Of a stretch of 64,000 nucleotides of DNA, positions 29,051-57,204 are shown in pieces. The stretch is from Squalus acanthias. Its lineage: Eukaryota. The stretch lies in assembly GCA_030390025.1 (NCBI GenBank), contig CM059432.1, positions 23,996,001 through 24,060,000 of the forward strand, read 5' to 3'. Both the position numbers and the translations under genes were made by a program. The notes beneath the pieces are model-generated. The model was not told the origin of the DNA. It ran no database searches and saw only the letters and a program-made list of their open reading frames with translations. Each line of letters begins with the position of its first letter. Within the stretch, counting starts at the first letter, position 1.

Positions 29051-29702
29051 TATGAGAAAAGATCAGCAGGTAACATAAAAGGAAACCCAAAAATCTTTTA
29101 TAAACATATAAAAAGTAAAAGGATAGTTAAAGAAATTGAGGGGCCGATTAGGGAGGATTGCAAATGTTACATCCCTGTTCAAAAAAGGAGAGAGGGATAA
29201 ACCTGATAACTACAGGCCAATCAGTCTAACTTCAGTGGTAGAGACGATTGTCAAGGACAAAATTAATTCTCACTTGGAGAAGCATGGGTTAATAAGGGAC
29301 AGCCAGCACAAATTTGTTAAAGGCACATCATGTCTGACTAATCTGACTGAGTTCTTTGATGAAGTAACAGAGAGGGTTGATGATGGTTGTGCAATAGATG
29401 CATATATGGGCCTAGAAATTGGTTTGACCCCGAAAACGGGCGCCCCCACGCACTTCCAAAGGAATGCTGGCAGCACACGAACTTTGTGCTGCCTGCTGAT
29501 TACCATGATTGCGACATTCAGCCCAGCGCTGAATGTGCTGCTGAGTGGCTGATCGCTCAGCAGGGGGCCCAAGTTTGTGCGAGGCTAGCACCAATGAAAG
29601 CTAGCCTGCACTTCTTAAAGGCAGTCTGCACCTTTTAAAGGGGAAGTTCATTCTGCCTGCAGCAGCTCACTCAACTGGCTGGAGACGCAGGAACAACAAC
29701 TA

Positions 29703-31523
29703 ATGATGGCACAAGAGGGGATAGAGTGTGCACCAAGGTTCTCGGATGCAGCACTGGAGGCCTTGGTGCAGGAGGTGAATAGTAGGAGAGAGGTCTTGTT
29801 TTCACTGGGGGCTAGGAGGACCTCCAGGCAAAATCATAAATGGCAATGGGAGCAGATAGCCATAGCTGTCAATGCCAGCAGTGCAGCCCCGAGGACCTGG
29901 ACGCAGTGCAGGAAGAAGTTTAATGACCTCACACGAGTGGTCAAGGTCAGTGAATTCATCTTCAAATGTCATATCCCACCATCTGCACCACAAGCCTCAC
30001 ACACTGCTCAATGCCACACCCCCATCACTCACCTACCAACAATCTCTACCAAACACGACTCGCACCTCACATTCATAGCTTCACCTCACCCTCACACACT
30101 TACCACTGCTGCAAGCCTCACACCCACATCTCACAGCCTGTACACACTCTCACATATATCACCCAAACTTATTGCACCACACTCACTAACACTCTGCCCT
30201 TTCTCTTGCAGAAAAAAGTGGCTTACAATCGGAGGCAGCAGGGACTACACGAAGGGGCACAGACACGCCTGCATAATCTTACTCCCATGGAGGAGACGGT
30301 GCTGACCATTCTTGGGAGGGCAATCGCTGAGCCCGTGGCTAGCGACAGGGCTGAAGCAATCCAAGATGACGGTATCCTCATACCTAATCCTCCTTCTCAC
30401 ATCCCACTTCCCCCTCATCCCACAATCTCTTCTGACTTACAAGCTGCGGATGGTGTAAGCATGCACCTCTTGCTTCCCCCCACCTCACCACAACCTTACC
30501 CTTGTGTCTTTCTCCTTTCAGATAGACAAGAACTACATCCTGGTGGAGGAGCAGGAAGACAATGATCATGAAGAAACAGCATCACTCGATTTCACACTCG
30601 CAGCCACCAGCTCAGATACTGACACTCTGTATACTTTAAAGATAGGGTAGAGGCGGGACCTGCACGTGGTGAGACACTGGGCAGAAGGAAAGGGTAGCGC
30701 AGGTGCCAACTCCCGGAGGGTAAGGTCACACATGAGTTCTGTTGCAGAGGACTCAGATGAGGACTTCGATGGTGCAGCCTACAGAAGAAGGCTGATGGGT
30801 AGGCACACAGAAATGCTTGATGCATTGGCAGACCTGGCAGAAAGCCTGAGTGCAATGTCAAGGAGCATGGAGGAATCTGGCACCAACCTTGCACAGGACT
30901 TTGCACAGAGCTTGGAGCTCATCCTTTCCAGCATGCAAGTGATGGCCAACTCCATTAGTGCACTTGTTGACCCAACCATGATGCAGGGTCTAATGGCCGA
31001 TGTCTCAGCTTCCAAAGCAGCACAGGCGGAAGCAACCCAACATCTGAGTGCTGCAGTGGAAGCTCAGACTTCTGTCATGCAAACTCAGACTGCTCAGAAA
31101 GCTGCCATCGTGGCTGCGTTTACCAGTGTTGAAAGTGGCTTGCAGGGTGTCACAGCAGTCCAGCAATCTGTCCTCCAACAGATTACTAGGACTGCTGAGG
31201 CGCCGCCCCGGGACAGTGGCTCTGTGGAGTACTATCCTGCTGGCCTCTCTCAGGAGGACAGCATTCGTGCTTCCACCACTGCCACTCTGCCATTGCTCTT
31301 GCTGTTGCCTGCTGTTGCTGTTCATGCCGAGGTAGTGCAGTCTACAGCCGGGCCTTCTAGACCCAGAGCTGATCGAGCTCGTCCTACAAGGCCATCTGTA
31401 GTCTACCCCACTGAAAGTCAGCACCCTTCCACCAGCCATGCTGCAGCCACTGGGGTAGCATTTCATAGGCGCACTAGGACTGGCAAAGGCACACAGAAGA
31501 TGGGCACTAAGGTGATTAGTTGA
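29703..31523 (+). pseudogene. Harbinger Myb/SANT-like protein gene (about 3 exons, frameshifted)
   Basis: APRFSDAALEALVQEV...WEQIA...RTWTQCRKKFNDL followed by gtcagt donor; acceptors ttgcag (~30211) and tttcag (~30521). Confidence 0.85.
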
Positions 31524-36911: not shown

Positions 36912-39097
36912 CATATACCCTGCCTATCTCAGAGTTTAACCACCTCCCCTTGACATTCAATGGCATTACCATCATTGAAACCCCCACCATCAACATCCTG
37001 GGGGTCACCTTTGACCAGAAACTTAACTGGACGAGCCACATAAATAGTGTGGCTCCAAGAGCAGGTCAGAGGCTGGGTATTCTGCTGCAAGTGACTCACC
37101 TCTTGACTCCTCAAAGCCTTTCCACCATCTACAAGTCACACGTCACTATTCAAAAAGGGGGGTAGGGAAAAAGCAGGTAATTACAGACCTGTAAGCCTTA
37201 CATCAGTTGTGGGCAAAATGCTGGAGTCCATCATTAAGGATGAAATAGCGGAGCACTTAGCAAATGGGGACAGGATAGGACAGAGTCAACATGGATTTAC
37301 AAAGGGTAAATCGTGCTTGACTAATCTATTGGAATTTTTTGAGGGAGTAACTGGTAAAATAGATGGTGGAGAGCCAGTAGATGTGGTGTACCTGGACTTC
37401 CAAAAGGCCTTCGACAAGGTCCCACATAAAAGATTAGCATGGAAAATTGAAGCTCATGGGATAAAGGGGAAAGTATTGACGTGGATAGAGAACTGGCTGT
37501 CAGATAGAAAACAGAGAGTTGGAATAAACGGCTCATTTTCTGAATGGCAGGCAGTAACAAGTGGGGTACCACAGGGATCTGTCCTGGGTCCCCAGCTGTT
37601 CACAATTTATATTAATGACCTGGATCAGGGAGTCGGATGCAGCATTTCCAAATTTGCAGACGACACTAAACTAGGAGGGGGGGTGGGCTCAGAGGAGGAG
37701 ACCAGGAAGCTCCAGAGCGATTTGGACAGACTGGGTGATTGGGCGGATAAATGGCAGATGCACTATAATGTGGACAAGTGCGAAGTTATCCACCTTGGGT
37801 GCAGGAACGGGAGGGCAAATTATTATTTAAATGGCAATAAATTGGGAGAGGGGGAAGTACAGAGAGACCTGGGTGTTCTTGTACACCAGTCACTGAAGGC
37901 GAGCATGCAGGTGCAACAGGCGGTCAAGAAGGCAAACGGTATGCTGGCCTTCATAGCAAAAGGGTTGGAATACAGGAACAGGGATACCTTGCTGCAGCTG
38001 TACAGGGCACTGGTGAGACCACACCTCGAGTACTGTGTACAGTTTTGGTCGCCTCATCTGAGGAAAGATGTTCTTGCCATGGAGGGGGTGCAGCGGCGAT
38101 TCACCAGGCTGATACCAGGAATGGCGGGATTGACCTATGAGGAGAGACTATGTAGTTTAGGGATGTACACACTGGAGTTTAGAAGATTGAGAGGGGACCT
38201 CATAGAAGTGTATAAAATTCTGACAGGTCTAGACAGACTAGATGCAGAAGGAATGTTTCCCTTGGCGGGTGAGAACAGAACTAGAGGACATAATTTAAGG
38301 ATAAGGGCTAAACCATTTAGGACAGAAATGAGGGGGAATTTCTTCACTCAGAGGGTGGTGAACCTGTGGAACTCATTGCCACAGAGGGCAGTGTACGCCA
38401 GCTCATTAAATATATTTAAGAGGGAATTAGATATATTTCTACAGGCAAAAGGGGTTAAGGGTTACGGAGAGAAGGCGGGGACGGGATACTGAATTGGAGG
38501 ATCAGCCATGATCTCATTAAATGGCGGAGCAGGCTCGAAGGGCCGGATGGCCTACTCCTGCTCCTATCTTCTATGTGTCTATGTATGAGTGTTCTCTTCA
38601 CTTGCCTGGATGGGTGCAGCTCCAAGAACACTCAAGAAGCTCACCACCAGCAGGACAAAGCAACCCACTTGATTTGCACCCCATCCACCACCTTAAACAT
38701 TCACTTCCTCCACCACCAGCGTACCGTGGCTGCAGTGTGTACCATCTACAAGATGCACTGCAGCAACTTGCCAAGGCTTCTTCGACAGCACCTCCCAAAC
38801 CCATGACCTCTGCCACCTAGAAGGACAAGGGCAGCAGACACATGGGAACACCACCTCCTCCAAGTTCCCTTCCAAGTCACGCACCATACTAACTTGGAAA
38901 TACATCGCCATGCCTTCATCGTCATTGGGTCAAAATCCTGGAACTCCCTACCTTACAGCACTGTGGGAGTACCTTCACCAGACTGCAGCAGTTCAAGAAG
39001 GTGGCTCACCACCACCTTCCGAAGGGCAATTAGAGATGGGCAATAAATGCTGACCTTGCCAGCGGCGCCCACATCCCGTGAATGAATTAAAAAAAAG
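36912..39097 (+). mobile_element. CR1/L2-group LINE 3' part, split by a young CR1
   Basis: INILGVTFDQKLNWTSHI motif; tail ggcaataaatgctg...aatgaattaaaaaaaa. Confidence 0.8.
37144..38587 (+). mobile_element. Young 5'-truncated CR1 with open RT frame (37209-38492)
   Basis: Uninterrupted 427-aa RT ORF differing at two visible residues from the copy at 50086-51807. Confidence 0.95.
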
Positions 39098-41439: not shown

Positions 41440-43039
41440 TGTAAGGGATTCTGACCCTGCGTGTCTCGCAGCCTGTGAGATTCACGCGGCTCTGTGCAGC
41501 CTGTATGTCAGTGCGGGTCTAGGCCTTGTTGCCTGTTCTGGTCTCCAGCCAGTCTGGGAACACTAGACACACCTGTGAGTGGTTCGAATCACTCGCCCTT
41601 ACGGTTCTAGACACTGGACTTACATGCGAGAGCAGTAATGGAGACGAAACTCATGTAGACTCGGTTGAATGGTACGAAATGGAAAATCTTTATTGCATGA
41701 TACTTAAGATTATGAAATACATGTCATAAGCACAGATTAATGACAGTACAATCTTACAAGCAGTTATATAGTCGATCTTAGGGAAACGAGGAACGAACGG
41801 CACATAGTAAATAGGAGCACACATTACAAATATCCTTAATCCTTAAACCCTCCCCTATCAATATCTATCCTAAACTAGATTCGTAGGATTTCGAGACTCA
41901 TGCTCACCACTCGTGATAACTCGGAGAAATTCCGAATAGCTGATCGGATGTTTTTCACCGCAGCACCCACGTGTCGGTCAGGAGATCTCCTGGTCCCACT
42001 TGTTTACTTGCTTCTGCTGCTCCGGCTAGCAGGCTGGAACGTCTGCTGTCATGAAGATTTGTATTGGTGGTTTTCACATTCCAGTCAATACTTAAGAAAA
42101 GAATTTTCCGGTGTCCGTTCTTTCGAAGAAGTCTTCCTGGCAAGGAAAATGTCAATTCGACCTACAGGCGCGGTCGGGGCTTACTGACTGTGGCGATAAG
42201 TATGGTCTTCGTCTCTTCCCATCTCATCTCATCTCATCTCTTCTCGGGCCTTTGGTTCCGATACCGGTTACCAATACAGGTCTTCGCGACCCGACACGAG
42301 GTAGATCCGAACGGATCACAAAGTTCAACAGTCTTTTAAAAGAGACACGAGGCAAGCAGGAACAAGACGGCGAGTCAAAAACACAGGAGCAGCCACGATG
42401 ATAAGAGAAAGATGGACGGTTTGGAGCCTGCAATTATAGTGCAAAATCTTCCGTTTCCCGCCCAACTTTAATGTCCATTCTTTTGTTTAGGGTCTGGCGC
42501 TCAAATGTCTTGTATGGGTGATCTCCGTTCTTAATGGGTTTCGGGGCTACTCGTAAATGTCTGAGTACCTGTTAATATTTCTCCCATTGTTAAATTGGTC
42601 GGTGTTCTCCCTGGGGGGGTTGTGGGGCTTCCAAGCGTTTTGTATAACTACCTGTTAACGGCTCTCTCATCGTAGAGTCGTTGGGATTTTACATATTAAT
42701 GTCTTTTGGATGGGCCCTTGATTACTCGGTACAATAGCTTTCATTTGTACCTGGGAGACCGATTTCAGTATTTATGTGTATACTGCAAACCCATAATGTC
42801 TCGTGTATTATCTTTACTGTGCTGAATCTTAATCGATCTTGCACAAATGTTTATTGGAACGCCATCTTGTCTGCCTGTTGAAAAGTCTAGAATGTTCTGT
42901 CACGAGGTGCGGCGGCCATTTTACAGGCTGCTTGTGTCCACTTTAAACCTGGCAGCATTCTGCTGAAATAAAAGCTGTTTGAACGAAACTCTGTGTTTTC
43001 TCCTTATTAATAAAATCGCGATATATTGCGAATTCTACA
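41440..43039 (-). repeat. 3' LTR (1600 bp)
   Basis: Direct repeat of 49039-49984 plus 55053-55709. Minus-strand AATAAA at 41689-41694. Confidence 0.95.
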
Positions 43040-43489: not shown

Positions 43490-45816
43490 TCACACGGTGC
43501 TTTCATCGTGCACGCGCACGTAACGTTCTCGCCACTCTCCCGTGTTTTCATGCTTGGTGAGGCGCTTGTCTCTTTTACAATGTACGACCAATAGGTACAC
43601 TACAATAAACTTGGCATACGACTAAAATGTGGGAGGCTATTCTGATCCATGAAGGCACTTCAATATTAGTGAACAGATTCCACCACGGTGGAACTACTAT
43701 ATCCAGAATGTCTGTTCCTATTTCGACAGTTTTCTGTTCTAATGTGTAAAAATGTTTCTGTGACACCGCGACGGCTTTTAAAAGTTTGGTGAGGTGTTCA
43801 GGGAGAGGGGGAATGAGTTATCCGAAATGCGCGACGAATCGCTGCAAGTCGGTGAAATTCTCTTTTACTGTGAGATGAACAGTGGATGGTTCAGGGATTG
43901 GGACAATTCGCTGTTGTGCTACTTGAACTTCCGCCCTGGGTTTAAAACAGAAGCTGCTGTCACTCACCGGACACCGGCTACGGTTTCCATGCTGGTAGTG
44001 TTGCGCTGCAGTGGTAACACAATATGTTCCACCCCCGATGTATGCTACCTGCGGAGGCACATGATCTTGTGCCATTGCCTCCATGGTGCAATTCATGGAC
44101 TTGGCGCCAGTCGTTCTGAACCCGCACTGTGGTGTTAAAAAGGCATTCAAGTGCTGGGGGCACAGTATTATGTGTGCTCCCCTGCCACGACAACCAGAGA
44201 GATCTGTACCTGTCATCGTTTGCTCCCAGCGGATGACGTAAGGTGGAACCGCTGCATAGCGAATGTGGGCTCCCCCCTGAATGACACCAATGTTCTCTAC
44301 CCGATACAGCGGGGCGGGCTTTGCTGTGTCGCCCAAAACCGACATACGTAATACTATTCCCATAATAGTATGGTTTGAACGTCCGCAGTCCACGGGGACT
44401 GGGTAAGCTTCTGAAGCTAGCCTGAGCTGGCACGGACTTAATGCGTTCTGAAAAGGGTGGAGCGCCGGCAGGTGTTTGTTACTTATCGAGGACGGAACCA
44501 AACCTTGTTTTAAATCCTCCAAATTACTGCGGCCCTCGCCCAGTAACCACGCCCCGTAAAGCACGCACACCTCGTTCTGCGCAGCTTGATCGGATGCATT
44601 CCGATCTTCCCTAATCAGGGCATTTACCGTCTTTGCATGTTTCTCCAACTCTGCTATAATTTCCTTTAAATGGAGAGTCATGGCTTGGTCCTCGTGTAAA
44701 CCTGACCCTACCACTTTATTCTCATCTGTTAGAATGTCTTTTAATTGTGTCTTTAAACCATTAATCTGGGTCTGCAGCTCCACACTGTCTAGAGCGTTGA
44801 CCACAGATGTACCCGTGTTAAAAGCAGTGAACGCATCATTCACCAAACCCCTTCTTTGCCTCCCTGCTTGATTCAAAACTAACTGTGGTGCGGTGTACAA
44901 ACTTGTTTTATCAATTTCCGCGAAATCGAATTCGTAAAATTGTCTGAACATCTTGGTCAACAGGACCTGATACAACTGTTCTGTCTTTTTGGGGCACCAC
45001 TCTGGTAACCGCACCTCGGTGAGATTTAAAATCACCGAGGCCACCGCGTAATGTACCCCCTGAAATAGTATCTGGTCTGTGGGGACCAGTACCAAACCAT
45101 TCCCGGGTCCCTTACTAGTTTTAGGGCACCCTTCTTCCTCAGCTAGAACCACCGGAATCGTGGGCGGGGCTTTGCGTGGGCGCGTAATGAGCTCAGTGGC
45201 ATTTACTGGGATCGGAGAGAATGGGGCTCCGCACCCCCTGGTGCTCGCATCCCACCTCATCCCCTGTCCGTTATCCTGCCATTGATTAATGAAAAATATG
45301 GAGATGCCTTTGGGGCAAACGTACTTTGACCCCCACATACATACATAAATTCCCTCGTCCGGTTCCCACCATTTGTCCCAACAGACTTTCACTTGTCCGT
45401 TTGTCCCCGTAATTGTCCGATGGGTATTATTACCCAGTCGTTCCCACTCGACCGAAGAGTTCCTCATAGTTTTGCTCAGCTTTCGTAGCCACCACCATCG
45501 GCTCAATGGGACATTCCCACTACAAGTCAAACAAATCCGTTTGCCGACGGTGACGCTGATCCTGGGTGCGATGATCCTTACTTTGGGGCACAGTAAAGAA
45601 GTCTCTAGAATACTCCGTTGAGTTCGTTCCCAGCCATCCTGGCCACCTTCCCTTGTGGAAATAGGTGCTGGTCTCCTCTGCCTCCCGTCTTCCGGTCCCA
45701 TCCACCGCGATGGGGGCCGTGTCCCCGGAACATCCAAACACCACGACATCCTTGGTGCGGCCTCGATAGGCCAATCCACATCCGATTGCCACGAGCAATA
45801 CTAGAATTCGTTCCAT
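43490..45816 (-). pseudogene. env: Envelope glycoprotein: signal peptide, Ig-like domain, F-type class I fusion protein, TM
   Basis: Signal peptide MERILVLLVAIGCGLA from ATG 45816. Frameshift near 45586 into the 653-aa frame. Furin site RQRR (44850-44861), then GLVNDAFTAF fusion peptide, heptad repeat and Cys-rich region. In-frame TAA at 43818-43820. Second frameshift near 43610 within the TM, then KRDKR tail and TGA at 43490. Confidence 0.85.
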
Positions 45817-46104: not shown

Positions 46105-47226
46105 TTAAATTCTGAGAAGGCTGCTGCGAGCTCTTCCCGACGGTGGGAGGGCACTGACCCTTCCCTCTGATCTGCCGCAGCCTGTTGCTGCTGCGATGTG
46201 GCCGGCCTGTATCTGGGTTATCTTAACCTTAACTCTACGCCTTGGGGCAGTCTGGGGACATGACCACATCCTCCTGGGCTGGGGTTCTCTACTTGACCTA
46301 CGGGGAGTTGCTATGGGCGGGGGTTCCGTGACGGACGGACCGGGTTCCGAGACTTCCATCGGGATGACCTGGGGTTCCATCACAGTCGCTGGCTCCGCCT
46401 CCGCTGACTCCGCCTCCCTAACCTCGGGGCTTGCAGTTTGTGGCCCCGCCCTGCTTGGCCCAGCAGGCGGCCCTTCACTCGTGATCTCTGCCTCCCCCAA
46501 GGACGGGACGTTCAAAGCGGGCGGCCACATCTCTGGGAGCCACACCGGTACTCTCTGTGCTCCCATAGCGGCTGGCCCTGCCTCCCCTAGCTCCTCCCTC
46601 CTGTCTTCGGGACCTGCAGCTCGTGTGTCCACCCTGTGTGGATCTCTACCTGCAGCCCCCGTCCCCTCCATATCGTAAAAGGGACCGTTCCTGAGAAACC
46701 ACCCGTCGTCATCACTATTCTCATCTGTACTGTCCTCATCTGACCCGGGTACCCTGAATTCTTCCTCATCTAACCCCCAATTCCAGAAAAACGCTGCATG
46801 ATCGTCCGGGATGTCCCTTCCCCTGATGCAAGCTGCTATGCCTGCCTGTGTGCCTTGTGGTCCTACCTGGGGCTGTGCTTTCCCACTGGCGGGGTTTACC
46901 CCTGTAGTTTTCCCCTGCGCACCTGGCTGGTACAGTTTGCACTGGTTTGCATCCTCATACTCCCGGCTTTTGGCTACCCTGTAGGCTGCTTTTATCTCAC
47001 TAAGCTGCGCTTCTAGCCTGAGCACGTCTAACTTTCCCATTGATCGGGCGTTCTCCTCCCGCAGGGCCTGCTCTCTAAGCTGCCCTTCCAGCCCATCTAT
47101 TTTCCCTATTAAGCGGGCGTTCTCCTCCCGCAAGGCCTGCTCTTTTAACCTGGCCTCCTCACCGCAGACCCCCTCCTGTGCGTGTCTTTTAAAAGGACAC
47201 AGGTAGGCAGGCTGCGTGGGCTCTAG
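46105..47226 (-). CDS. ORF2 of the provirus: unknown coiled-coil, acidic and Pro-rich protein
   Basis: Open frame from just after the TGA at 47227-47229 to the stop at 46105. No PR, RT, RNase H or IN motifs. Start uncertain (first ATG near 47040). Confidence 0.6.
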   Translation of the reverse strand, partial: LEPTQPAYLCPFKRHAQEGVCGEEARLKEQALREENARLIGKIDGLEGQLREQALREENARSMGKLDVLRLEAQLSEIKAAYRVAKSREYEDANQCKLYQPGAQGKTTGVNPASGKAQPQVGPQGTQAGIAACIRGRDIPDDHAAFFWNWGLDEEEFRVPGSDEDSTDENSDDDGWFLRNGPFYDMEGTGAAGRDPHRVDTRAAGPEDRREELGEAGPAAMGAQRVPVWLPEMWPPALNVPSLGEAEITSEGPPAGPSRAGPQTASPEVREAESAEAEPATVMEPQVIPMEVSEPGPSVTEPPPIATPRRSSREPQPRRMWSCPQTAPRRRVKVKITQIQAGHIAAATGCGRSEGRVSALPPSGRARSSLLRI

Positions 47227-47258: not shown

Positions 47259-49034
47259 CTACCCGGTTGCGACCGCCACCTGTCCACGTGCACTCAAGAT
47301 TAGATTGCGCATGGCTCCTAACACTACTTCGATGTCGTCGGGAGGGGTGGGTGCCTTAGCTTCCTTAGCCGGGACAGGCGCCTGGGCTCGGACCGCGGGA
47401 TTTTTATCCTTGGAATCCTTCCAAGGGTTCCTGCAATGCTTGCGCCAGTGCCCTGTCTTCCCACACCCGTAACAAGCATTACCTGCCTGTGGGGCGCGAT
47501 TACCCTCCTGATGCCACTCTCTTTGATACGGGGCTGCGGGTCGTACCTCATGTACTCTTCCCTTAAGGGGACGTGTTGCCATACCCCTTATATTGCGATA
47601 TCCTAACGTGAGTCGATTCAAGACCGACTCTTCCGTAATGTTGGGGTCATTGGGATCAAACCATGCTTTTGCCTGCTCTCTGACGGCTGGTAAACTGTTG
47701 GCTATTATGCACCTAAGCCAATGAGTTAAAGCTAAGCCTTCCACATCTTCGCGCTCGGGCGCACCTAGACAGCTGCGCTCATATACTGGCCACAGCCTGT
47801 CGGCAAAAACCTTCGGGGGTTCTCCCTCCATCTGCACTGTCTGTCCCACTCTAGCAAACGGACCTTCATCGTTCGCCCCCAACACTTCCAGGACCTCATT
47901 CTTTAATTCCTCATAACTCTTGGTTCCCCTCTTGCTCTCGCCTGAGAGACACTGAAGAACCGAGCTGTCTAGTGAGAACAGCAGCATTTTTGCTGTCTCC
48001 CCATCATCGCAGCCGTTAATGGCTGCGGCTTGCTCAACTTCTCTGAAATGTACGGAAGGGTCGTCTGACTCAGTCAGCTTCCGTACGTGATTTATCATAG
48101 CTCGCAGCTGATGTGAGCTGTGAGGCAACACCAGCTGTCCGAGGAGATCCCCCGGTTCTTCCCCACCGTTTCTGCTTGGGCCCCTTTTAATACCCGTTAC
48201 TGGATACAACGGTCCCTTTCCTACTTCTTTTTCAATGGGCTCTTTCGTTTCTTCCATTGCTTCCTCCCTTACCCAGGTTTCCGAATAGCTGGGTGGCGCG
48301 GAGGGCGCAGTGGCTACTACTTCTTCTGCTTTACTTGGTGGGGATTTCTTAAACTTCTCACTTGCTAGCGGCTGGTGTGCTGACGGACTGATCAGGCACA
48401 CCATGCCGTTCGCTTTGTTTACGGCCTTCTTGAGGTGCTCTATCTCCCTTTGGCAGGCACTATGGTCGGCTCCCTCAAACTTATCCTCAAGGGCCAACTT
48501 ATATGCCGCCCTAACCCCCGTTAAGCTCTCTTCTTGAGTTCTTATCTGGGCAGCTTGGCGGTTACATCTTTCCTTTAACCTGCTCTCATTTAACTTTGCC
48601 TCAGTGACCTGGCACTCGAGGTAATCTATCCTTGTTTTATGGTGACTGGAGATTTCCTGGCGTTCTTGGTGCAACGCACTTAAATTCCTAATGAGCAACT
48701 CCCCTCCAGAGACCTTCTCATCCATTTCCTCCTCTAAATGCCTGATCCGAGCTGTTTGCGCTGTAATGACTTGGTTTGAAATCTGGACCTGCCTTTTGTA
48801 ACACATTAACCAGACTGCTTTCTCAAGTGTCTTTCTATGTTCTTTACTATCTGTCCACCTTTCGGCTGCCTCTAGTGGACTCTTATCCGCTAACAATTCA
48901 CTTATCCATTTCTTAGTTAGATTAACCTTTCCGAACACATAATCTGCTATCTTTTCCTGCATAACATTTCGTACAGTCATTCCAAAGTCTAACACACTAC
49001 CCTCTCGCTGCCAGTGTCCTGCCGCGGTCGCCAT
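47259..49034 (-). CDS. gag: Gag polyprotein (591 aa)
   Basis: N-terminal coiled coil, PSAPPSY late-domain motif (48285-48305), helical capsid-like region and CCHC knuckle CYGCGKTGHWRKHC (47433-47474). Confidence 0.9.
   Translation of the reverse strand: MATAAGHWQREGSVLDFGMTVRNVMQEKIADYVFGKVNLTKKWISELLADKSPLEAAERWTDSKEHRKTLEKAVWLMCYKRQVQISNQVITAQTARIRHLEEEMDEKVSGGELLIRNLSALHQERQEISSHHKTRIDYLECQVTEAKLNESRLKERCNRQAAQIRTQEESLTGVRAAYKLALEDKFEGADHSACQREIEHLKKAVNKANGMVCLISPSAHQPLASEKFKKSPPSKAEEVVATAPSAPPSYSETWVREEAMEETKEPIEKEVGKGPLYPVTGIKRGPSRNGGEEPGDLLGQLVLPHSSHQLRAMINHVRKLTESDDPSVHFREVEQAAAINGCDDGETAKMLLFSLDSSVLQCLSGESKRGTKSYEELKNEVLEVLGANDEGPFARVGQTVQMEGEPPKVFADRLWPVYERSCLGAPEREDVEGLALTHWLRCIIANSLPAVREQAKAWFDPNDPNITEESVLNRLTLGYRNIRGMATRPLKGRVHEVRPAAPYQREWHQEGNRAPQAGNACYGCGKTGHWRKHCRNPWKDSKDKNPAVRAQAPVPAKEAKAPTPPDDIEVVLGAMRNLILSARGQVAVATG
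49016..49033 (-). promoter_or_regulatory. Primer-binding site for tRNA-Arg(TCG)
   Basis: TGGCGACCGCGGCAGGAC, after a 5-nt spacer following the 5' LTR, is complementary to the 3' 18 nt (GTCCTGCCGCGGTCG-CCA) of vertebrate tRNA-Arg-TCG as I recall it. Confidence 0.85.
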
Positions 49035-50085
49035 TTTCTGTAAGGGATTCTGACCCTGCGTGTCTCGCAGCCTGTGAGATTCACGCGGCTCTGTGCAGCC
49101 TGTATGTCAGTGCGGGTCTAGGCCTTGTTGCCTGTTCTGGTCTCCAGCCAGTCTGGGAACACTAGACACACCTGTGAGTGGTTCGAATCACTCGCCCTTA
49201 CGGTTCTAGACACTGGACTTAGATGCGAGAGCAGTAATGGAGATGAAACTCATGTAGACTCGGTTGAATGGTACGAAATGGAAAATCTTTATTGCATGAT
49301 ACTTAAGATTATGAAATACATGTCATAAGCACAGATTAATGACAGTACAATCTTACAAGCAGTTATATAGTCGATCTTAGGGAAACGAGGAACGAACGGC
49401 ACATAGTAAATAGGAGCACACATTACAAATATCCTTAATCCTTAAACCCTCCCCTATCAATATCTATCCTAAACTAGATTCGTAGGATTTCGAGACTCAT
49501 GCTCACCACTCGTGATAACTCGGAGAAATTCCGAATAGCTGATCGGATGTTTTTCACCGCAGCACCCACGTGTCGGTCAGGAGATCTCCTGGTCCCACTT
49601 GTTTACTTGCTTCTGCTGCTCCGGCTAGCAGGCTGGAACGTCTGCTGTCATGAAGATCTGTATTGGTGGTTTTCACATTCCAGTCAATACTTAAGAAAAG
49701 AATTTTCCGGTGTCCGTTCTTTCGAAGAAGTCTTCCTGGCAAGGAAAATGTCAATTCGACCTACAGGCGTGGTCGGGGCTTACTGACCGTGGCGATAAGT
49801 ATGGTCTTCGTCTCTTCCCATCTCATCTCATCTCATCTCTTCTCGGGCCTTTGGTTCCGATACCGGTTACCAATACAGGTCTTCGCGACCCGACACGAGG
49901 TAGATCCGAACGGATCACAAAGTTCAACAGTCTTTTAAAAGAGACACGAGGCAAGCAGGAACAAGACGGCGAGTCAAAAACACATACATAGATACATAGA
50001 TACATAGAAGATAGGAGCAGGAGTAGGCCATCCGGCCCTTCGAGCCTGCTCCGCCATTTAATGAGATCATGGCTGATCCTCCAAT

Positions 50086-51810
50086 TCAGTATCCCGTCCC
50101 CGCCTTCTCTCCATAACCCTTAACCCCTTTTGCCTGTAGAAATATATCTAATTCCCTCTTAAATATATTTAATGAGCTGGCGTACACTGCCCTCTGTGGC
50201 AATGAGTTCCACAGGTTCACCACCCTCTGAGTGAAGAAATTCCCCCTCATTTCTGTCCTAAATGGTTTAGCCCTTATCCTTAAATTATGTCCTCTAGTTC
50301 TGTTCTCACCCGCCAAGGGAAACATTCCTTCTGCATCTAGTCTGTCTAGACCTGTCAGAATTTTATACACTTCTATGAGGTCCCCTCTCAATCTTCTAAA
50401 CTCCAGTGTGTACATCCCTAAACTACATAGTCTCTCCTCATAGGTCAATCCCGCCATTCCTGGTATCAGCCTGGTGAATCGCCGCTGCACCCCCTCCATG
50501 GCAAGAACATCTTTCCTCAGATGAGGCGACCAAAACTGTACACAGTACTCGAGGTGTGGTCTCACCAGTGCCCTGTACAGCTGCAGCAAGGTATCCCTGT
50601 TCCTGTATTCCAACCCTTTTGCTATGAAGGCCAGCATACCGTTTGCCTTCTTGATCGCCTGTTGCACCTGCATGCTCGCCTTCAGTGACTGGTGTACAAG
50701 AACACCCAGGTCTCTCTGTACTTCCCCCTCTCCCAATTTATTGCCATTTAAATAATAATTTGCCCTCCCGTTCCTGCACCCAAGGTGGATAACTTCGCAC
50801 TTGTCCACATTATAGTGCATCTGCCATTTATCCGCCCAATCACCCAGTCTGTCCAAATCGCTCTGGAGCTTCCTGGTCTCCTCCTCTGAGCCCACCCCCC
50901 CTCCTAGTTTAGTGTCGTCTGCAAATTTGGAAATGCTGCATCCGACTCCCTGATCCAGGTCATTAATGTAAATTGTGAACAGCTGGGGACCCAGGACAGA
51001 TCCCTGTGGTACCCCACTTGTTACTGCCTGCCATTCAGAAAATGAGCCGTTTATTCCAACTCTCTGTTTTCTATCTGACAGCCAGTTCTCTATCCACGTC
51101 AATACTTTCCCCTTTATCCCATGAGCTTCAATTTTCCCTGCTAATCTTTTATGTGGGACCTTATCGAAGGCCTTTTGGAAGTCCAGGTACACCACATCTA
51201 CTGGCTCTCCCCCATCTATTTTACCAGTTACTCCCTCAAAAAATTCCAATAGATTAGTCAAGCACGATTTACCCTTTGTAAATCCATGTTGACTCTGTCC
51301 TATCCTGTCCCCATTTGCTAAGTGCTCCGCTATTTCATCCTTAATGATGGACTCCAGCATTTTGCCCACAACTGATGTAAGGCTTACAGGTCTGTAATTA
51401 CCTGCTTTTTCCCTACCCCCCTTTTTGAATAGTGGGGTAACGTTAGCTACCCTCCAATCCATGGGCACTGTTCCCGAGTCTAATGAATTCTGAAAAATCA
51501 TACTTAGTGCATCCGCTATCTCTAGGGCCACCTCCTTCAGCACCCTAGAATGCATGTTATCAGGCCCTGGGGATTTGTCCGCCTTCAATCCCTTTAGCTT
51601 CCTTAACACCATATCCTTAGAGATATTGACTTGCGTCAGTTCCTCCTTTGCAAATGTCCCTATTTTTCCCGATATCCCAGGGAGGTTTTTTGTGTCTTCC
51701 TTCGTAAAGACTGACCCAAAGTATGCATTTAGTTGGTCTGCCATTTCTTTATTTCCCGTTATATATTCCCCCGTATCTGACTGCAATGGGCCAACTTTGG
51801 TTTTCACCAG
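50086..51810 (-). CDS. CR1 ORF2 reverse transcriptase part
   Basis: PGPD, NYRPVSLTSVVGK, LDFQKAFD, GVPQGSVLGP and FADD motifs. Confidence 0.95.
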   Translation of the reverse strand: MVKTKVGPLQSDTGEYITGNKEMADQLNAYFGSVFTKEDTKNLPGISGKIGTFAKEELTQVNISKDMVLRKLKGLKADKSPGPDNMHSRVLKEVALEIADALSMIFQNSLDSGTVPMDWRVANVTPLFKKGGREKAGNYRPVSLTSVVGKMLESIIKDEIAEHLANGDRIGQSQHGFTKGKSCLTNLLEFFEGVTGKIDGGEPVDVVYLDFQKAFDKVPHKRLAGKIEAHGIKGKVLTWIENWLSDRKQRVGINGSFSEWQAVTSGVPQGSVLGPQLFTIYINDLDQGVGCSISKFADDTKLGGGVGSEEETRKLQSDLDRLGDWADKWQMHYNVDKCEVIHLGCRNGRANYYLNGNKLGEGEVQRDLGVLVHQSLKASMQVQQAIKKANGMLAFIAKGLEYRNRDTLLQLYRALVRPHLEYCVQFWSPHLRKDVLAMEGVQRRFTRLIPGMAGLTYEERLCSLGMYTLEFRRLRGDLIEVYKILTGLDRLDAEGMFPLAGENRTRGHNLRIRAKPFRTEMRGNFFTQRVVNLWNSLPQRAVYASSLNIFKRELDIFLQAKGVKGYGEKAGTGY

Positions 51811-52228
51811 GGCAGCACGGTGGCATAGTGGTTAGCACTGGTGCCTCACAGCGCCAGAGACCCGGGTTCGAATCTGACCTCGGGTGACTGTCTGTGTGGA
51901 GTTTGCACATTCTCCCCGTGTCTGCGTGGGTTTCCTCCGGGTGCTCCGGTTTCCTCCCACAGTCCAAAAATGTGCGGGTTAGGTTGATTTGGCTATGATA
52001 AATTGACCCTAAGTGTTAGGGGGGGATTAAATATGTGGGGTTATGGGGATAGGATGGGATATGTTAGGGGGAATTAAATACGTGGGGTTACGGGGGTAGG
52101 GTGGGGATTAAAGCAGGGACAGGGTACTGGATTTGGATGATCAGCCATGATCGTATTGAATGGTGGAGCAGGCTCGACGGGCCGAATGGCCTACTCCTGC
52201 TCCTGGATTCTATGTCTATGTTTCTATG
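51810..52228 (+). mobile_element. HE1-like V-SINE inserted in CR1 ORF2
   Basis: gggcagcacggtggcatagtggttagcactg...gttcgaatc head, V-domain and CR1-type tail ending ttctatg. Confidence 0.9.
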
Positions 52229-53371
52229 TCTTTTCCTCTTGATATACTTATAAAAGCTTTTGGAGTTAGTTTTTATATTTTCCGCCAGCTTGCTTTCGTA
52301 AGCTATTTTGCCCCTCTTGATTAAGCCCTTTGTCCTCCTTTGCTCTATCTTAAACTGTTCCCAATCTTCCGCTCTGGCGCTTTTTTTGGCTATTTTATAC
52401 GCCCTATCTTTGGATTTTATGCTGTTTCTAATTTCCCCTGTTATCCACGGTTGAGTCACCTTTTTAGATTTCCTTTTATGCCAGATTGGTATAAACAATT
52501 TTTGCAATTTTGTCATTCTATCTTTAAATGCTTGCCATTGTTTATCTACCTCCAGTCCTCCCAGGAACGTTGTCCAATCAGACCTACTCAGTTCCCGTCT
52601 AATAGCATCATAATTCCCCTTGTTTAAATTCAGGACCTTAGTATCTGAGTCAATTTCTTCGCTCTCCATTTCGAGTGAGAAATCGATCATGTTATGATCG
52701 CTCTGGCCCAAGGGTCCCCGTACAACAAGATTACTAATTAGTCCCTTCTCATTGCACAGTACCCAGTCCAATATAGCCTGTTCCCGAGTTGGTTCCTCGA
52801 CATATTGATCCAGATAACCATCCCTTAAACACTCAAGGAATTCCTCCTCCTCATTATTTTTACTGATTAGGCTATTCCAATCTATATGTAAGTTAAAGTC
52901 ACCTATGATGACAGCTGTGCTCTTATTGCACGCTTCTCTAATTTCCCTCGTGATGCCCTCCCCAACCTCTATTTTACTATTTGGAGGCCTATATACCACT
53001 CCTATTAATGTTTTTCGCCCCTCGCTATTTCTTAGCTCCACCCATATAGATTCTGTATTAACTGAGTTAATATCCTTCCTTTCAATTGCATTTGTCCCTT
53101 CTTTTACCAGCAATGCTACCCCTCCTCCCTTTCTTTTTTGTCGATCCTTCCTAAATACTGAATACCCCTGTATGTTAAGCTCCCAGCCCTGCTCACCCTG
53201 CAACCATGTTTCCGTAATCCCAATTAGATCATAATTATTAACCTCTATTTCCACAGCTAATTCATCTACCTTGTTCCTGATGCTTCTCGCATTAAGGTAT
53301 AAAACCCTCAGGCTTTTTTTATGCTCACATTTTTTATGAATTGGTTTGGCCCTTTGTTTTTTGTTCCTCAC
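52229..53371 (-). CDS. CR1 ORF2 APE-type endonuclease part
   Basis: LYLNARSI, GITETW, GVVYRPP, GDFN and SDHN motifs. Confidence 0.95.
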
Positions 53372-53445
53372 CCTTTTACCATTTATTTCTGTCTGCCTTT
53401 CACTTTCCTCTATTTCACTACATAGGTTTCTAGCCCCCTGCCATA

Positions 53446-54393
53446 CTAGTTTAAATGCTCCCGAACTGCTTTATCAAAAATTACCCCGAGAACATCAGTT
53501 CCATCTTTGCACAGGTGTAGACCGTCCCTTTTGTATAGGTCACACCTACCACAAAACTGGTTCCAATGCCTCAAAAATTTAAAACCCTCCCTCTTACACC
53601 ACTGCTCAAGCCACGTATTTAGCCTAACTATCCTGTTCTCTGTACTCTTACTAGCACGTGGCACTGGTAGTAATGCAGAGATTACTACCTTCGAGGTCCT
53701 ACTTTTTAGCTTGGCTCCTAACTCCCTAAATTCTACTTGTAGGACCTCTTCCCTTTTTTTAGCTACGTCGTTGGTACCAACATGTATCACGACAACTGGC
53801 TGTTCCCCCTCCCCCTCCAGAATGTTCTGCACCCGCGCCGAGACATCCTTGACCCTTGCACCAGGGAGGCAACATACCATCCTGGAGTCTCGGTCGCGAC
53901 CACAGAAACTCCTATCTATTCCCCTTACAATCGAATCCCCTATTACTATAGCCCTGCCACTCTTTTTCCCTCCCTTCTTTGCAACAGAGCCAGTCATGGT
54001 GCCATGAGCCTGGCTGCTGGTGCCTTCCCCCGATGAGTCATCCCCCCCGACAACAGCACCTAAGGCGGTGAACCTGTTGCTAAGGGAGACAACCCCAGGG
54101 GATTTCTGCACTACCTTCCTGCCCTTGCTCTGCCTTTTGGTCACCCATGTACTATCTACGCTGGCCTTAACCTGCGGTGTGACCAACTCACTAAATGTGT
54201 TATCCACAACCCTCTCAGAATCGTGGATGCTCCAAAGTGAGTCCATCCGCAGCTCAAGGGCCGTCATGCGGTCCCACATGAGCTGCAGCTGGACACACTT
54301 CCCGCATACATGGTTGTCAGGGACACAGGAAGCGTCCCTGATTTCCCACATGTTACAGGAGGAGCATGACACAGGTCCGAGCTCTACTGCCAT
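53446..54393 (-). CDS. CR1 ORF1 (zinc finger/leucine zipper plus SGNH esterase)
   Basis: CSSC...CGKC, IGDSIVR, HVGTND and DGLHL motifs; intact 315 aa. Confidence 0.95.
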   Translation of the reverse strand: MAVELGPVSCSSCNMWEIRDASCVPDNHVCGKCVQLQLMWDRMTALELRMDSLWSIHDSERVVDNTFSELVTPQVKASVDSTWVTKRQSKGRKVVQKSPGVVSLSNRFTALGAVVGGDDSSGEGTSSQAHGTMTGSVAKKGGKKSGRAIVIGDSIVRGIDRSFCGRDRDSRMVCCLPGARVKDVSARVQNILEGEGEQPVVVIHVGTNDVAKKREEVLQVEFRELGAKLKSRTSKVVISALLPVPRASKSTENRIVRLNTWLEQWCKREGFKFLRHWNQFCGRCDLYKRDGLHLCKDGTDVLGVIFDKAVREHLN

Positions 54394-54677
54394 GACTTAA
54401 CCCTTATATTACTTTTTAATTTTCTAGTTTTAGTTTATTTATTGACTTTTGTTTTCCCGAAGCTTACTTAGACCAATGTATACTGTACTCCTCTTATTCC
54501 TTTTTAAACTAACCAAATCCCACTAGTTTTAGTTTTACTTTCTAGGAAGGTTTGAGGAAAGTACTTACCAGTTAGTCTTACCTCCCTGGTCTTTCGCTGA
54601 CTTCCCGGTCTTGTGTCCCCTCCTTAAATGCTGTTCACCTGGGTGCTTCCCACCTGGTCCGCTTCCGGTCTCGTCTC

Positions 54678-55055
54678 TCCCGACACTGGCCTCTGCAAAA
54701 AAAGCCCGCGAAAGTGAGTTTAAATACTCACTGTGCTGCTGCTCTCTCCGCTCCCGACACTGGCCTCTGCAAAAAAAGCCCGCGAAAGTGAGTTTAAATA
54801 CTCACTGTGCTGCTGCTCTCTCCGCTCCCGACACTGGCCTCTGCAAAAAAAGCCCGCGAAAGTGAGTTTAAATACTCACTGTGCTGCTGCTCTCTCCGCT
54901 CCCGACACTGGCCTCTGCAAAAAAAGCCCGCGAAAGTGAGTTTAAATACTCACTGTGCTGCTGCTCTCTCCGCTCCCGACACTGGCCTCTGCAAAAAAAG
55001 CCCGCGAAAGTGAGTTTAAATACTCACTGTGCTGCTGCTCTCTCCGCTCCCGACA
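54678..55055. repeat. 74-bp tandem monomers (~5) in the CR1 5' UTR
   Basis: Identical units; ORF starts recur at 54733, 54807 and 54881. Confidence 0.95.
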
Positions 55056-57204
55056 GGAGCAGCCACGATGATAAGAGAAAGATGGACGGTTTGGAGCCTG
55101 CAATTATAGTGCAAAATCTTCCGTTTCCCGCCCAACTTTAATGTCCATTCTTTTGTTTAGGGTCTGGCGCTCAAATGTCTTGTATGGGTGATCTCCGTTC
55201 TTAATGGGTTTCGGGGCTACTCGTAAATGTCTGAGTACCTGTTAATATTTCTCCCATTGTTAAATTGGTCGGTGTTCTCCCTGGGGGGGTTGTGGGGCTT
55301 CCAAGTGTTTTGTATAACTACCTGTTAACGGCTCTCTCATCGTAGAGTCGTTGGGATTTTACATATTAATGTCTTTTGGATGGGCCCTTGATTACTCGGT
55401 ACAATAGCTTTCATTTGTACCTGGGAGACCGATTTCAGTATTTATGTGTATACTGCAAACCCATAATGTCTCGTGTATTATCTTTACTGTGCTGAATCTT
55501 AATCGATCTTGCACAAATGTTTATTGGAACGCCATCTTGTCTGCCTGTTGAAAAGTCTAGAATGTTCTGTCACGAGGTGCGGCGGCCATTTTACAGGCTG
55601 CTTGTGTCCACTTTAAACCTGGCAGCATTCTGCTGAAATAAAAGCTGTTTGAACGAAACTCTGTGTTTTCTCCTTATTAATAAAATCGCGATATATTGCG
55701 AATTCTACAACCTAGTAGGGTAAGTACCCTTTTAATGACATTATAAATGATACTTACTGCCAATCCACCTCTCTGGCATCTAAATTCATTATTACAAGTG
55801 TGGCATCTCATTCTTTCAGGTTTTGAATTTTTCAGGGAGATTTTAAAAATGTTAAATTTTAAATAATTTTTCTTTCTTACTTTTCCTTCCTGTCTCCTTT
55901 TCTCTCTCTCTCTCTTAACCTGATCTTTCTTTCTCTTTCATTAGTTCTCTTTCTGTACCTGAATTGCAATTGATTAATTTACCCTTCTCAATCCTTCTGT
56001 GGTTTATTTTCCAATCGTTAAATCTCATTGGTTGCCCTCTTCACTCAGGTCCCAGATGCCCGGTTTCCCTCGCTGCGCCGTTATCAGCTCGCACTTGCAG
56101 CAACTTTGTGTGAAAAATTGTTTTGAGCTGAAGGGTGGAGGGACAAATCTAACTTACAGCAGATGCCGTTAGATGCCCTGTTACAGCAAAATTTAGCCCA
56201 TTAAATCGAAGCTCATCTGTCTTCTCAGGTGGATGTAAAAGATTCCATGATGCTATTTGAAAATCAGCAGGGTAGTTTAAAATAGATTATCTGGTCATTT
56301 ATTTCATTGCTGTTTGTGGAATCTTGTTGTGCGTAAATTGGCATCCGTGTTTCACTACATTGGCTACACCTCAAAAGCACTTCATTGACTGTGAAGTGGT
56401 TTGAGACATTGTGAAAGGTGTTATATAAATGCCTCTAGATAAGACAAACCAATCTTGACTGATGGCAATGGCCATTTCATCTTCCTCTGCATTCTTTTTT
56501 CAATCGGTCTTTTTAGCAGAACATAAGGATCAGAGACATCTGTTGGCAAACCCAGATGGAGGTCCACAGTAAAGAGATAGCAGAGTGTTATGGTAGCTTA
56601 GATAACCATGTTCTTTCTCAGTTTTACCATTATCGCCTGGAGGTAGGTCAATTTGAGTTCAGACATAAATATTCCAGTGTTTTTGTCAGTTCAGATCAGT
56701 GCTGTATCTTCTGTAATCCAAGTAAGGCTTGCGCATTCATTCACCATTACATCATTCTAAAGTTACTTAACCTGTTGTGGTTTGTTTTCCTTTCACTGGT
56801 GCAATGTTGTTCTATTTTGTTGTTAATTTTTTTTTTGCTTTTTCTTTTCTGTGAAACTGTAATAAAGGGAGATAGCTTAACCAAAATCATACTGTGCTTT
56901 TCATAGACAAAGTCCAACCACCTCCAGTCTTCCTACAAGTCTTGACTACAGTATCATAGATGCAAAATATCAAATTGAAAGTGTTGTGAGAAATGAAGAC
57001 CTTTAGATACCGCCCCAATAGTCACAGTTACCACTCAGCATAAAGCTGGGAATTATGATACTGGACTAGCAACCCAGAGATTGTGAGATCAAGTCCTAAC
57101 ATGACAATTTGTGAAACTAAATTTAATAAATAAGATCACTTATGGGCTAGCACTAGGAAATAAATGACAATGAAAGTTGTTGGATTGTTGCAAAATCCCC
57201 CTGT

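Follow-up and report, generated by a model that had tools for sequence, protein, structure and literature searches.

The 64,000-nucleotide stretch of the dogfish (Squalus acanthias) genome analysed here (the window; assembly GCA_030390025.1, contig CM059432.1, positions 23,996,001 to 24,060,000) carries on its minus strand an endogenous retrovirus whose env gene encodes a predicted fusion protein of the paramyxovirus F type. Towards the N-terminus of this Env lies a segment that resembles an immunoglobulin (Ig) domain. We read this segment as the Ig-fold outer N-terminal module of a lokiretrovirus-like Env and propose that it binds a receptor; taken as a whole, this is the best explanation of the data, and one that we hold with moderate confidence. 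The features of the locus are collected in Table 1. The element has a long terminal repeat (LTR) at each end, the 5' one of which is split by a long interspersed element (LINE). The two pieces of the LTR pair are 99.47% identical over 946 positions and 99.85% identical over 657 (self-blastn), i.e. about 6 of 1603 positions, or ~0.4% of sites, differ, and the two alignments overlap by 3 bp where the LINE inserted. The stretch between the LTRs is only ~6 kb long and holds a gag-like frame, a 373-codon frame and the env frame. Compared by blastn with a longer copy of the element (L011/L012), the window copy lacks ~3.6 kb of pol. The 373-codon frame was considered as an SMC-like extra gene and ruled out as such, as it consists of the tail of pol and an unaligned piece; in copy L001, the frame upstream of env begins with a GPY-type integrase end.

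A longer copy on another contig has gag, one stop codon, a 1507-codon pol in the same frame and then an 836-codon env; these are its only frames, and a separate attachment gene is absent from it. Its pol encodes a protease, a reverse transcriptase (RT), a degraded RNase H (tether), an RNase H and an integrase, detected with Pfam as RVP, RVT_1, RT_RNaseH_2, RNase_H, Integrase_H2C2 and rve. This copy therefore has the LTR-gag-pol-env-LTR order with dual RNase H (tether and RNase H) that characterises lokiretroviruses. The nearest solved Pol proteins were those of Ty3 (3.3e-72), the murine leukaemia viruses (XMRV/MLV RT, 1e-69) and foamy virus (protease-RT, 4.4e-64), which is compatible with a lokiretrovirus without being decisive. 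By its layout, the element is probably a lokiretrovirus-like endogenous retrovirus of a cartilaginous fish. Within this family the window copy is dead: it has lost pol, and its env carries two frame changes and one stop codon.

The Ig-like segment sits inside a 653-codon open frame (43818..45779, minus strand), and the translation quoted for it in a first-pass annotation, made from the sequence alone, matched the minus strand exactly. That annotation placed the segment between a signal peptide and a Pro-rich linker preceding an F2-like region. The downstream half of this description held, since a moderately Pro-rich stretch and then the F2-like part do follow, but the upstream half did not. 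When the 836-aa (amino acid) Env, P0007, was aligned to the window by tblastn, its residues 1-123 mapped to 45975-45607 in frame -2, residues 132-801 to 45605-43596 in frame -3 with the stop included, and residues 798-836 to 43609-43493 in the third frame. The first frame break, near 45606, is six codons upstream of the Ig-like segment, at a place where ~8 codons of other copies are missing. Because of this break, the 64 residues ahead of the segment in the 653-aa frame are out of frame and do not form a signal peptide. The true signal-like stretch and the pre-Ig segment are read in another frame, so the topology described is true of unbroken copies and not of the 653-aa frame. In relatives whose open frames are longer, namely another copy with its 836-aa frame and two proteins of Rhinoraja, the segment itself is read in the same frame, contrary to the possibility, raised with the first description, that intact relatives translate it differently. 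In unbroken copies, a leader and signal peptide are followed by a 67-aa pre-Ig segment, the Ig-like domain, a ~60-aa linker containing Cys and Pro, and the F2-like part; downstream of these lie RQRR, the fusion peptide, a heptad helix, beta-rich domains, a second heptad region, the membrane anchor and a tail.

Table 1. Features of the retroviral element and of other mobile elements in the window (window positions).
Feature	Position	Strand	Evidence or remarks
5' LTR, in two pieces (49039-49984 and 55053-55709)	49039..55709	-	self-blastn
LINE splitting the 5' LTR	49985-55052	-	5.07 kb; GDSL-esterase ORF1, APE, RT; Pfam, self-blastn
gag-like open frame, one CCHC knuckle	47259..49106	-	
373-codon frame: C-terminal tail of pol and ~250 nt that do not align there	46105..47226	-	blastn vs L011/L012
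Integrase tail of pol within the 373-codon frame	46948-46151	-	
env N-terminal part: leader, signal-like stretch, pre-Ig segment	45607..45975	-	tblastn of P0007; alignment A3
Signal-like hydrophobic stretch	~45816-45769	-	frame differs from that of the Ig part
Conserved pre-Ig segment (67 aa; P0007 residues 70-136)	45768-45607	-	frame differs from that of the Ig part
Env Ig-like domain (836-aa frame, residues 138-238)	45285..45587	-	translation, motif, Ig_3, hhalign, fold matches
Canonical Cys codons of the Ig part	45524-45522 and 45341-45339	-	
C-strand Trp run	~45497-45489	-	
Linker from Ig part to F2-like part: conserved Cys, N-glycosylation sequon, Pro-rich stretch	45102..45284	-	
F2-like part, from conserved CP..GPxxGL start to RQRR	44850..45128	-	AlphaFold2, Foldseek, alignment with relatives
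Furin-type site RQRR	44861-44850	-	
F1-like part: hydrophobic fusion peptide, long heptad helix, beta-rich domains	43821..44849	-	AlphaFold2, Foldseek
In-frame stop codon	43818..43820	-	removes second heptad region and membrane anchor
env remainder: membrane-proximal helix, membrane anchor, tail	43493..43817	-	second frame change near 43600
3' LTR	41440..43039	-	1600 bp; self-blastn
Further LINE copy	37107-38586	+	GDSL-esterase ORF1, APE endonuclease, RT family
Further LINE copy	61819-63788	+	GDSL-esterase ORF1, APE endonuclease, RT family
Tandem repeat near 5' end of a LINE copy	54587-55129		74 bp, ~6-7 units
Tandem repeat near 5' end of a LINE copy	61129-61377		79 bp, 3 units
Harbinger/PIF-like DDE_Tnp_4 transposase fragment and Myb/SANT-like ORF (first of the two positions)	10436-11254	-	
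Harbinger/PIF-like DDE_Tnp_4 transposase fragment and Myb/SANT-like ORF (second of the two positions)	29619-30305	+	

For comparison of the Env body with known folds, the 836-aa protein was modelled over its full length with AlphaFold from 53 sequences. The per-residue confidence (pLDDT) of this model was ~85-97 over residues 290-700, reaching ~90 from residue 290 onwards and 80-97 in the F1-like part. Foldseek against the PDB returned the F protein of human parainfluenza virus 3 at the top (E=4e-10, probability 1.0), followed by those of respiratory syncytial virus, parainfluenza virus 5, Langya virus, Newcastle disease virus, Nipah virus, Hendra virus, mumps virus and human metapneumovirus (E to ~1e-6, probability 1.0). 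All of the top matches listed were paramyxovirus or pneumovirus F proteins, with TM-target values of up to 0.52 and sequence identities of 8-15%. The Env sequence has RQRR followed by G-L-V-N-D-A-F-T-A-F, a putative fusion peptide, and in the unbroken copy there are helices at 397-497 and 732-765 and a hydrophobic helix, the membrane anchor, at 783-819. The set of class I traits in the unbroken copy thus comprises a basic site, a fusion peptide, two heptad regions and a C-terminal anchor, the last two of which are cut off in the window copy. Against BFVD, the model matched other F-like glycoproteins best (E=1.6e-14 to 7.6e-9, with low TM-scores of 0.10-0.46), namely baculovirus F (Ld130), paramyxovirus F0, the Envs of two walleye epsilonretroviruses and the glycoproteins of arli-, lispi- and chu-like viruses. 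A gamma-type Env was ruled out, as no Pfam family of that kind (TLV_coat or GP41) was drawn at E<=0.1. The whole-Env alignment (A1) matched nothing relevant among PDB sequences (best E=0.7), with no solved F found by that route. Together, the modelled structures give good support to a paramyxovirus/pneumovirus F fold for the body of Env, and the first-pass placement of an Ig-like domain N-terminal to the F2-like part of an F-type Env stands. The walleye matches in BFVD were unexpected. Both come from exogenous epsilonretroviruses, with E=1.4e-11 for the Env of walleye epidermal hyperplasia virus 1 and E=7.6e-9 for that of walleye dermal sarcoma virus; their TM-scores are low (0.10-0.24), and long helices may drive the match.

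The Ig-like segment (101 aa) contains ...RICLTC..., then RWWW 9-11 residues on, and V-C-W-D-K-W-W-E-P-D-E-G-I-Y-V-C. Its canonical cysteines, C159 and C220 in the 836-aa frame, are 61 residues apart with Trp at +9 to +11, and both cysteines and the Trp are invariant or nearly so in 24-29 sequences. This arrangement agrees with that of Ig domains, in which the cysteines lie ~55-75 residues apart and the C-strand Trp 10-15 residues past the first Cys, and D-x-G-x-Y-x-C is preceded by hydrophobic residues at -10, -13 and -15, as it is in the segment. The landmarks listed in the first-pass annotation (xLTC, a Trp ~10 residues on, D-x-G-x-Y-x-C and two Cys 61 residues apart) were all there and were unique in the window. 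A composite regular expression combining Cys, Trp, D-x-G-x-Y-x-C and Ig spacing had the segment as its sole match in the six frames of the 64-kb window and occurred in 0 of 200 block shuffles, which argues that the observation is real and not a chance pattern. Pfam Ig_3 matched the window copy at E=0.013 (16.4 bits) and was the only Pfam family drawn, by 21 of the 24 members of the lineage alignment at E<=0.1 (best 1.6e-4); for the relative P0013, the E-value was 0.0085. The best PDB sequence match of the whole frame was the Ig domain of JAM (E=0.052), ahead of three antibody light chains. With hhalign, 24 Env-Ig sequences were compared, profile to profile, with 30 Ig_3 exons of the host genome. 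The match had P=0.0011 and spanned 71 columns, from 2 to 73 of the 76 profile positions, in a register that places the Gly, Cys, Trp and D-x-G-x-Y-x-C of the segment on those of host Ig_3 (L-x-I-x-x-V...D-x-G-x-Y-x-C). When the neighbouring pre-Ig segment served as the control, the match spanned 10 columns, with P=0.062. Language-model look-alikes of the segment in the ESM-Atlas were Ig families (0.88-0.90), which we treat as a lead only. The composition includes seven Trp and extra Cys at 137, 156, 206, 228 and 255; among these, the conserved Cys 156 and 206 would, by the hhalign register, point outwards from strands B and E, which are neighbours, and might pair in a second disulfide.

The fold of the segment was examined in an AlphaFold model of the N-terminal region (residues 54-300; 29 sequences from five lineages and other species), which has the shape of an Ig sandwich despite its low confidence. 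The top 50 Foldseek matches of this model were nearly all V-type Ig domains (TM-target 0.53-0.70, best E=7.7e-4), and re-scoring of these matches with VIA gave Z up to 9.2 and root-mean-square deviations (rmsd) of 2.6-2.7 Å with 96-97 residues aligned. A scan independent of Foldseek, over 48,161 representative chains, also returned almost only Ig-superfamily domains among its top 50, with Z falling from 8.7 to 7.7 at rank 50, well above the tool's stated background of 4-5; the domains ranked included those of CD79b, myomesin/obscurin-like-1, embigin, titin, NCAM2, the T-cell receptor and BTLA. Overall, the low-confidence model matched Ig domains with Z 8.7-9.2 and rmsd 2.3-2.7 over 93-97 residues. 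Several independent lines, none of them strong, thus point to an Ig fold of the V/I-like kind, which we consider very probable. In the same model, one strand of the pre-Ig segment pairs with the Ig sandwich.

The segment was then followed across copies and lineages. In the dogfish genome itself (3.7 Gb), all 150 scored matches to the segment, drawn from 5478 first-look candidates, were 99-100% identical; the open frames that hold them range from 254 to 860 aa, with 815 and 855 conspicuous by eye. Older lineages of the same env are also present, with 53-60% identity to the query (itself a 50%-identical relative) and with stops in many copies. From these lineages, 26 copies were taken and the 22 without a stop in the N-terminal region were kept; leaving out the other 4 slightly favours intact sequence. 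In alignment A3 (29 sequences), columns at least 90% identical made up 50 of 99 in the Ig part, 21 of 67 in the pre-Ig segment and 16 of 54 in the linker. The ratio of nonsynonymous to synonymous change (dN/dS) was estimated between lineages by the pairwise Nei-Gojobori method on 19 copies in five groups. For the B1-B2 pair, with an unsaturated dS of 0.33, it was 0.16 in the Ig part, 0.16 in the pre-Ig segment and 0.47 in the linker. For the distant pairs, in which dS is saturated, the values were 0.09-0.13 in the Ig part (6 of 9 pairs, the other 3 giving no usable Ig value), 0.10-0.39 in the pre-Ig segment and 0.26-0.49 in the linker. The Ig part is therefore under purifying selection between lineages (dN/dS ~0.16), and the linker is less constrained (0.3-0.5). 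Across lineages, strands B, C, E and F hardly vary, and the variable columns of the Ig part concentrate in strand A and the loops B-C, C-C', D-E and F-G; in the skate proteins, the Ig part is 73-75% identical. Selection thus preserved the domain as the virus lineages separated, which speaks for a role in an env-dependent life cycle. The pre-Ig segment at 45607-45768 is constrained like the Ig part (dN/dS 0.15-0.19) and matches no family or fold.

With LTRs ~0.4% apart, at least 150 near-identical env copies and dN/dS well below 1, the family looks very recently active. In two sequencing runs, contig depth over the LTR and env was 3-8x that over gag-pol; joints were absent and the kind of RNA was guessed, so that env mRNA and DNA of pol-deleted copies are not separable as sources of the excess. 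One true RNA run yielded 0 reads, which has no bearing on expression either way.

An exhaustive phmmer search (1.84 billion representatives, E<=0.001) found 51 proteins, among them proteins of the sharks Pristiophorus, Mustelus, Chiloscyllium, Rhincodon, Heterodontus and Scyliorhinus, the skate Rhinoraja, the coelacanth and the frogs Xenopus, Pelodytes and Mantella. Wherever a match overlaps the Ig part, it reaches into the Env-specific pre-Ig segment as well, and hence no host Ig donor is in sight. The first-pass annotation had called the domain captured and had suggested a search for the closest host Ig protein. No such protein was found among the 51 matches, and the Ig domain is kept in several deeply diverged lineages of the dogfish genome, in other sharks and in a skate; a recent capture from a traceable host donor is thus not supported by the sequences, and in the shark and skate family the module is an old one. 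The distant full-length relatives share 19-32% identity in the core and differ in their N-termini. Of those compared with host Ig_3, only P0037 is supported (63 columns, P=8.4e-5; V-set E=0.045); its domain is Ig-like but lacks the Cys pair. In the frog proteins P0051 (Mantella; P=0.031) and P0022 (Pelodytes; P=0.054), only the A'-B strands match host Ig_3, and P0022 draws Ig look-alikes at 0.83-0.84. P0016, a Chiloscyllium relative, matches host Ig_3 at a different place (P=0.01), and its UniRef name, 'Ig-like domain-containing protein', was not reproduced by Pfam or by profile comparison. The Env-Ig profile did not match these distant N-termini significantly in hhalign (P0016, P=0.12; P0022, 0.18; P0037, 0.44; P0051, 0.44), and common descent with them is therefore not demonstrated. 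The module may be ancestral to all F-type Envs or may be one of several heads that were swapped in. A MAFFT alignment of the distant N-terminal domains with that of the dogfish Env (A2) was visibly misaligned in its C-terminal half and was left unused. Wider protein searches brought in close relatives only, 7 with A1 and 2 with P0022, and reached no teleost Env. In P0022 and P0051, R-E-K-R or R-N-K-R lies just ahead of the N-terminal domain, a possible second furin-type site that is not seen in the shark family.

Env genes of this F-type kind lie behind several 'uncharacterized protein' gene models of shark, skate, coelacanth and frog, some of them fused by gene predictors to host genes. The models P0006, P0011 and P0043 (Pristiophorus, Heterodontus) join env pieces to Niban 1-like, a zinc-finger protein and fbxo15; these fusions are annotation artefacts and not domain fusions.

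The layout of Env suggests how the module could act. Cleavage at RQRR would yield an N-terminal surface subunit, comprising the pre-Ig segment, Ig module, linker and F2-like part, and an F1-like membrane subunit. The former would take the role of the retroviral surface subunit (SU) and the latter that of the transmembrane subunit (TM), and the two may be held together by an SU/TM disulfide. At the far end of a flexible linker, the Ig module would bind a cell-surface receptor, and this binding would trigger the refolding of the F-like core. Attachment and triggering could thereby be combined in one polypeptide that replaces the separate HN, H or G protein of paramyxoviruses. Given an Ig fold, we regard receptor binding by the module as probable. 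The broader proposition, that the F-type Envs of lower vertebrates are modular attach-and-fuse proteins with an N-terminal Ig receptor-binding module ahead of the F2-like part in shark, skate and some other lineages, and that the dogfish family, with its near-identical LTRs, many long open env frames and strong purifying selection on env, is still, or was very recently, spreading by infection, may hold, though on balance we doubt it.

The module could instead have the Ig fold and serve another purpose: it might blunt immune recognition, by shielding or by mimicry of host surface proteins, or it might hold the F-like core prefusion as a clamp or chaperone. Immune evasion is the task of many viral Ig-like domains, and receptor-binding domains often diversify faster, which sits well with an Ig part that is more conserved than its neighbours (dN/dS 0.09-0.16; 50 of 99 columns at least 90% identical); in addition, relatives without the module exist (P0040). 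However, the module lies at the N-terminus of the surface subunit ahead of a flexible linker, the usual position of class I receptor-binding domains, its variable columns fall in loops resembling complementarity-determining regions, and the longer copy encodes only gag, pol and env, leaving no separate gene for attachment. Mimicry in particular is at odds with the phmmer search, which found no host protein close enough to be mimicked. We therefore think a role other than receptor binding unlikely, though it is the most serious of the alternatives.

Other observations weigh against an Ig-bearing F-type Env as such, and with them the Ig fold itself has to be weighed against a Trp- and Cys-rich beta module of some other fold whose Ig-like motifs arose by chance. 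No Ig Pfam model reached its curated cut-off (16.4 against 30 bits in the window copy), and the best of the 24 lineage members, at ~23 bits as judged by its E-value, also fell below 30. The profile of the N-terminal region (A3) matched 0 PDB sequences at E<=1, and the hhalign probability of the match to host Ig_3 was just 20%. In the Ig part, pLDDT was 50-67 in the N-terminal model (mean 46.8) and 35-62 in the full-length model, and the VIA Z-scores of 8.7-9.2 barely exceed the stated background best of 7-8. As confidence is low, the Ig-shaped model may partly echo the motif itself, and its G strand is drawn from residues 265-273 rather than 231-238, which makes the domain limits uncertain. 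For the body of the protein, Pfam PF00523 (F0) was matched neither by the 836-aa Env at E<=0.1 nor by the window copy and 10 relatives at E<=1. Among the relatives, Mustelus P0015 has a Cys-rich, non-Ig N-terminus (P=0.46 against host Ig_3) and P0040 (584 aa) has no N-terminal module, from which it follows that the F-like core may work without an Ig module. A different fold would account for sequence scores that are all sub-threshold, for the low AlphaFold confidence and for the unusual composition with its seven Trp and extra Cys. It would not readily account for landmarks that stand in the correct order and spacing over the whole Ig_3 profile, for Ig_3 being the sole Pfam family drawn (21 of 24 members), for the absence of the motif from the shuffles, or for an unbiased fold scan whose top 50 are nearly all Ig domains, matched over 90-99 residues of domains of 93-117 residues. 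Of the first-pass assignment to a V/I-set Ig domain, the Ig_3, hhalign and fold matches thus speak for the kind of fold, and the sub-threshold bit score and low pLDDT leave it short of a formal family call. We consider a non-Ig module quite improbable.

Gene predictors call the relatives 'uncharacterized protein LOC...' in several sharks and a skate, as might be expected of a host-domesticated, syncytin-like gene, but domestication is extremely improbable for an env that in the window is broken, flanked by 1.6-kb LTRs and next to gag and a pol remnant, that has at least 150 near-identical copies and several older lineages in the genome, and some of whose called proteins are chimeras with zinc-finger or Niban genes.

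The window as a whole is mostly built of mobile elements. It contains three LINE copies of the same type, including the one in the 5' LTR; the 3' end of that copy is 99.7% identical to an inverted partial copy at 38001-38586, which marks this LINE family, too, as young. Two of the LINE copies have tandem repeats close to their 5' ends, and a Harbinger/PIF-like transposase fragment and a Myb/SANT-like ORF occupy two further places (Table 1).

F-type Envs on retrovirus-like elements of vertebrates are already known from the lokiretroviruses (Wang and Han 2020, PMC7947760). According to that article, lokiretroviruses share with the dogfish element the LTRs, gag, a pol encoding protease, RT, tether, RNase H and integrase, and an env resembling the F of Mononegavirales, with a signal peptide, a furin-type R-x-K/R-R site, a fusion peptide, a coiled coil and a membrane anchor. 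Coelacanth and frogs, in which relatives of the dogfish Env occur, are both listed there as hosts. The same article (PMC7947760) also shows differences. The Env model drawn there has a signal peptide, a fusion peptide and, as its only other parts, a coiled coil and a transmembrane segment, and the terms 'immunoglobulin' and 'Ig-like' are absent from the text and supplement searched. The hosts named include no cartilaginous fishes, the Orectolobiformes row of the supplement giving 3 screened and 0 positive. Finally, PF00523 is matched by a salmon element at E=2.2e-7 and is undetectable in the dogfish Env. The dogfish family thus extends the range of F-type, lokiretrovirus-like Envs to cartilaginous fishes, which were not among the hosts named in 2020. 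Both terms are also absent from the searched full texts on errantivirus F/gB, Troyka and BHIKHARI, from a 2026 review of endogenous retrovirus structures and from a preprint on anamniote Envs, which deals with gamma-type Env only; 'immunoglobulin', the one word queried there, is absent from the full text of the Odin paper. The first-pass annotation knew of no described example of the architecture, and none was found in the literature searched, from which the supplements of the errantivirus paper and of the anamniote Env preprint were outside the scope; the one earlier hint met was the automatic UniRef name of the Chiloscyllium relative P0016. An F-type retroviral Env with a built-in Ig-like head is accordingly an architecture for which we found no printed description in that literature, and the same applies to its host group and copy number.

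The arrangement recalls that of gammaretroviruses. As Fass et al. are said to have described in 1997, the N-terminal receptor-binding domain of the gammaretroviral SU has an Ig-like beta-sandwich core and is followed by a proline-rich region. The dogfish Env appears to follow the same logic, with an N-terminal beta-sandwich, a Pro-containing linker and then the part that holds the fusion subunit. The fusion machinery differs, being F-like in the dogfish Env, which has no TLV_coat or GP41 Pfam match. To our knowledge, the receptor-binding domain of MLV also lacks the canonical Ig sequence signature, unlike the dogfish segment.

In the predicted fold of its fusion body, the dogfish Env resembles the F proteins of paramyxoviruses and pneumoviruses (TM-target up to 0.52; Foldseek E=4e-10 to 1e-6). 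As read from its sequence, it probably also shares with them a basic site beside the fusion peptide at which a small N-terminal subunit is separated from a large C-terminal one. These F proteins begin almost directly with F2 after the signal peptide, whereas the dogfish Env has ~220 extra residues, comprising the pre-Ig segment, Ig part and linker, ahead of its F2-like part. Paramyxovirus F normally needs a separate attachment protein for triggering, and in contrast to the paramyxoviruses with their separate HN, H or G, the dogfish element encodes none. If receptor binding by the Ig module is borne out, an F-like fusogen with its own Ig-type module would represent another solution to triggering and a simple system in which to study it. 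On the broader reading given above, it would be an experimentally tractable, naturally self-sufficient F protein that offers a view of triggering without a partner attachment protein.

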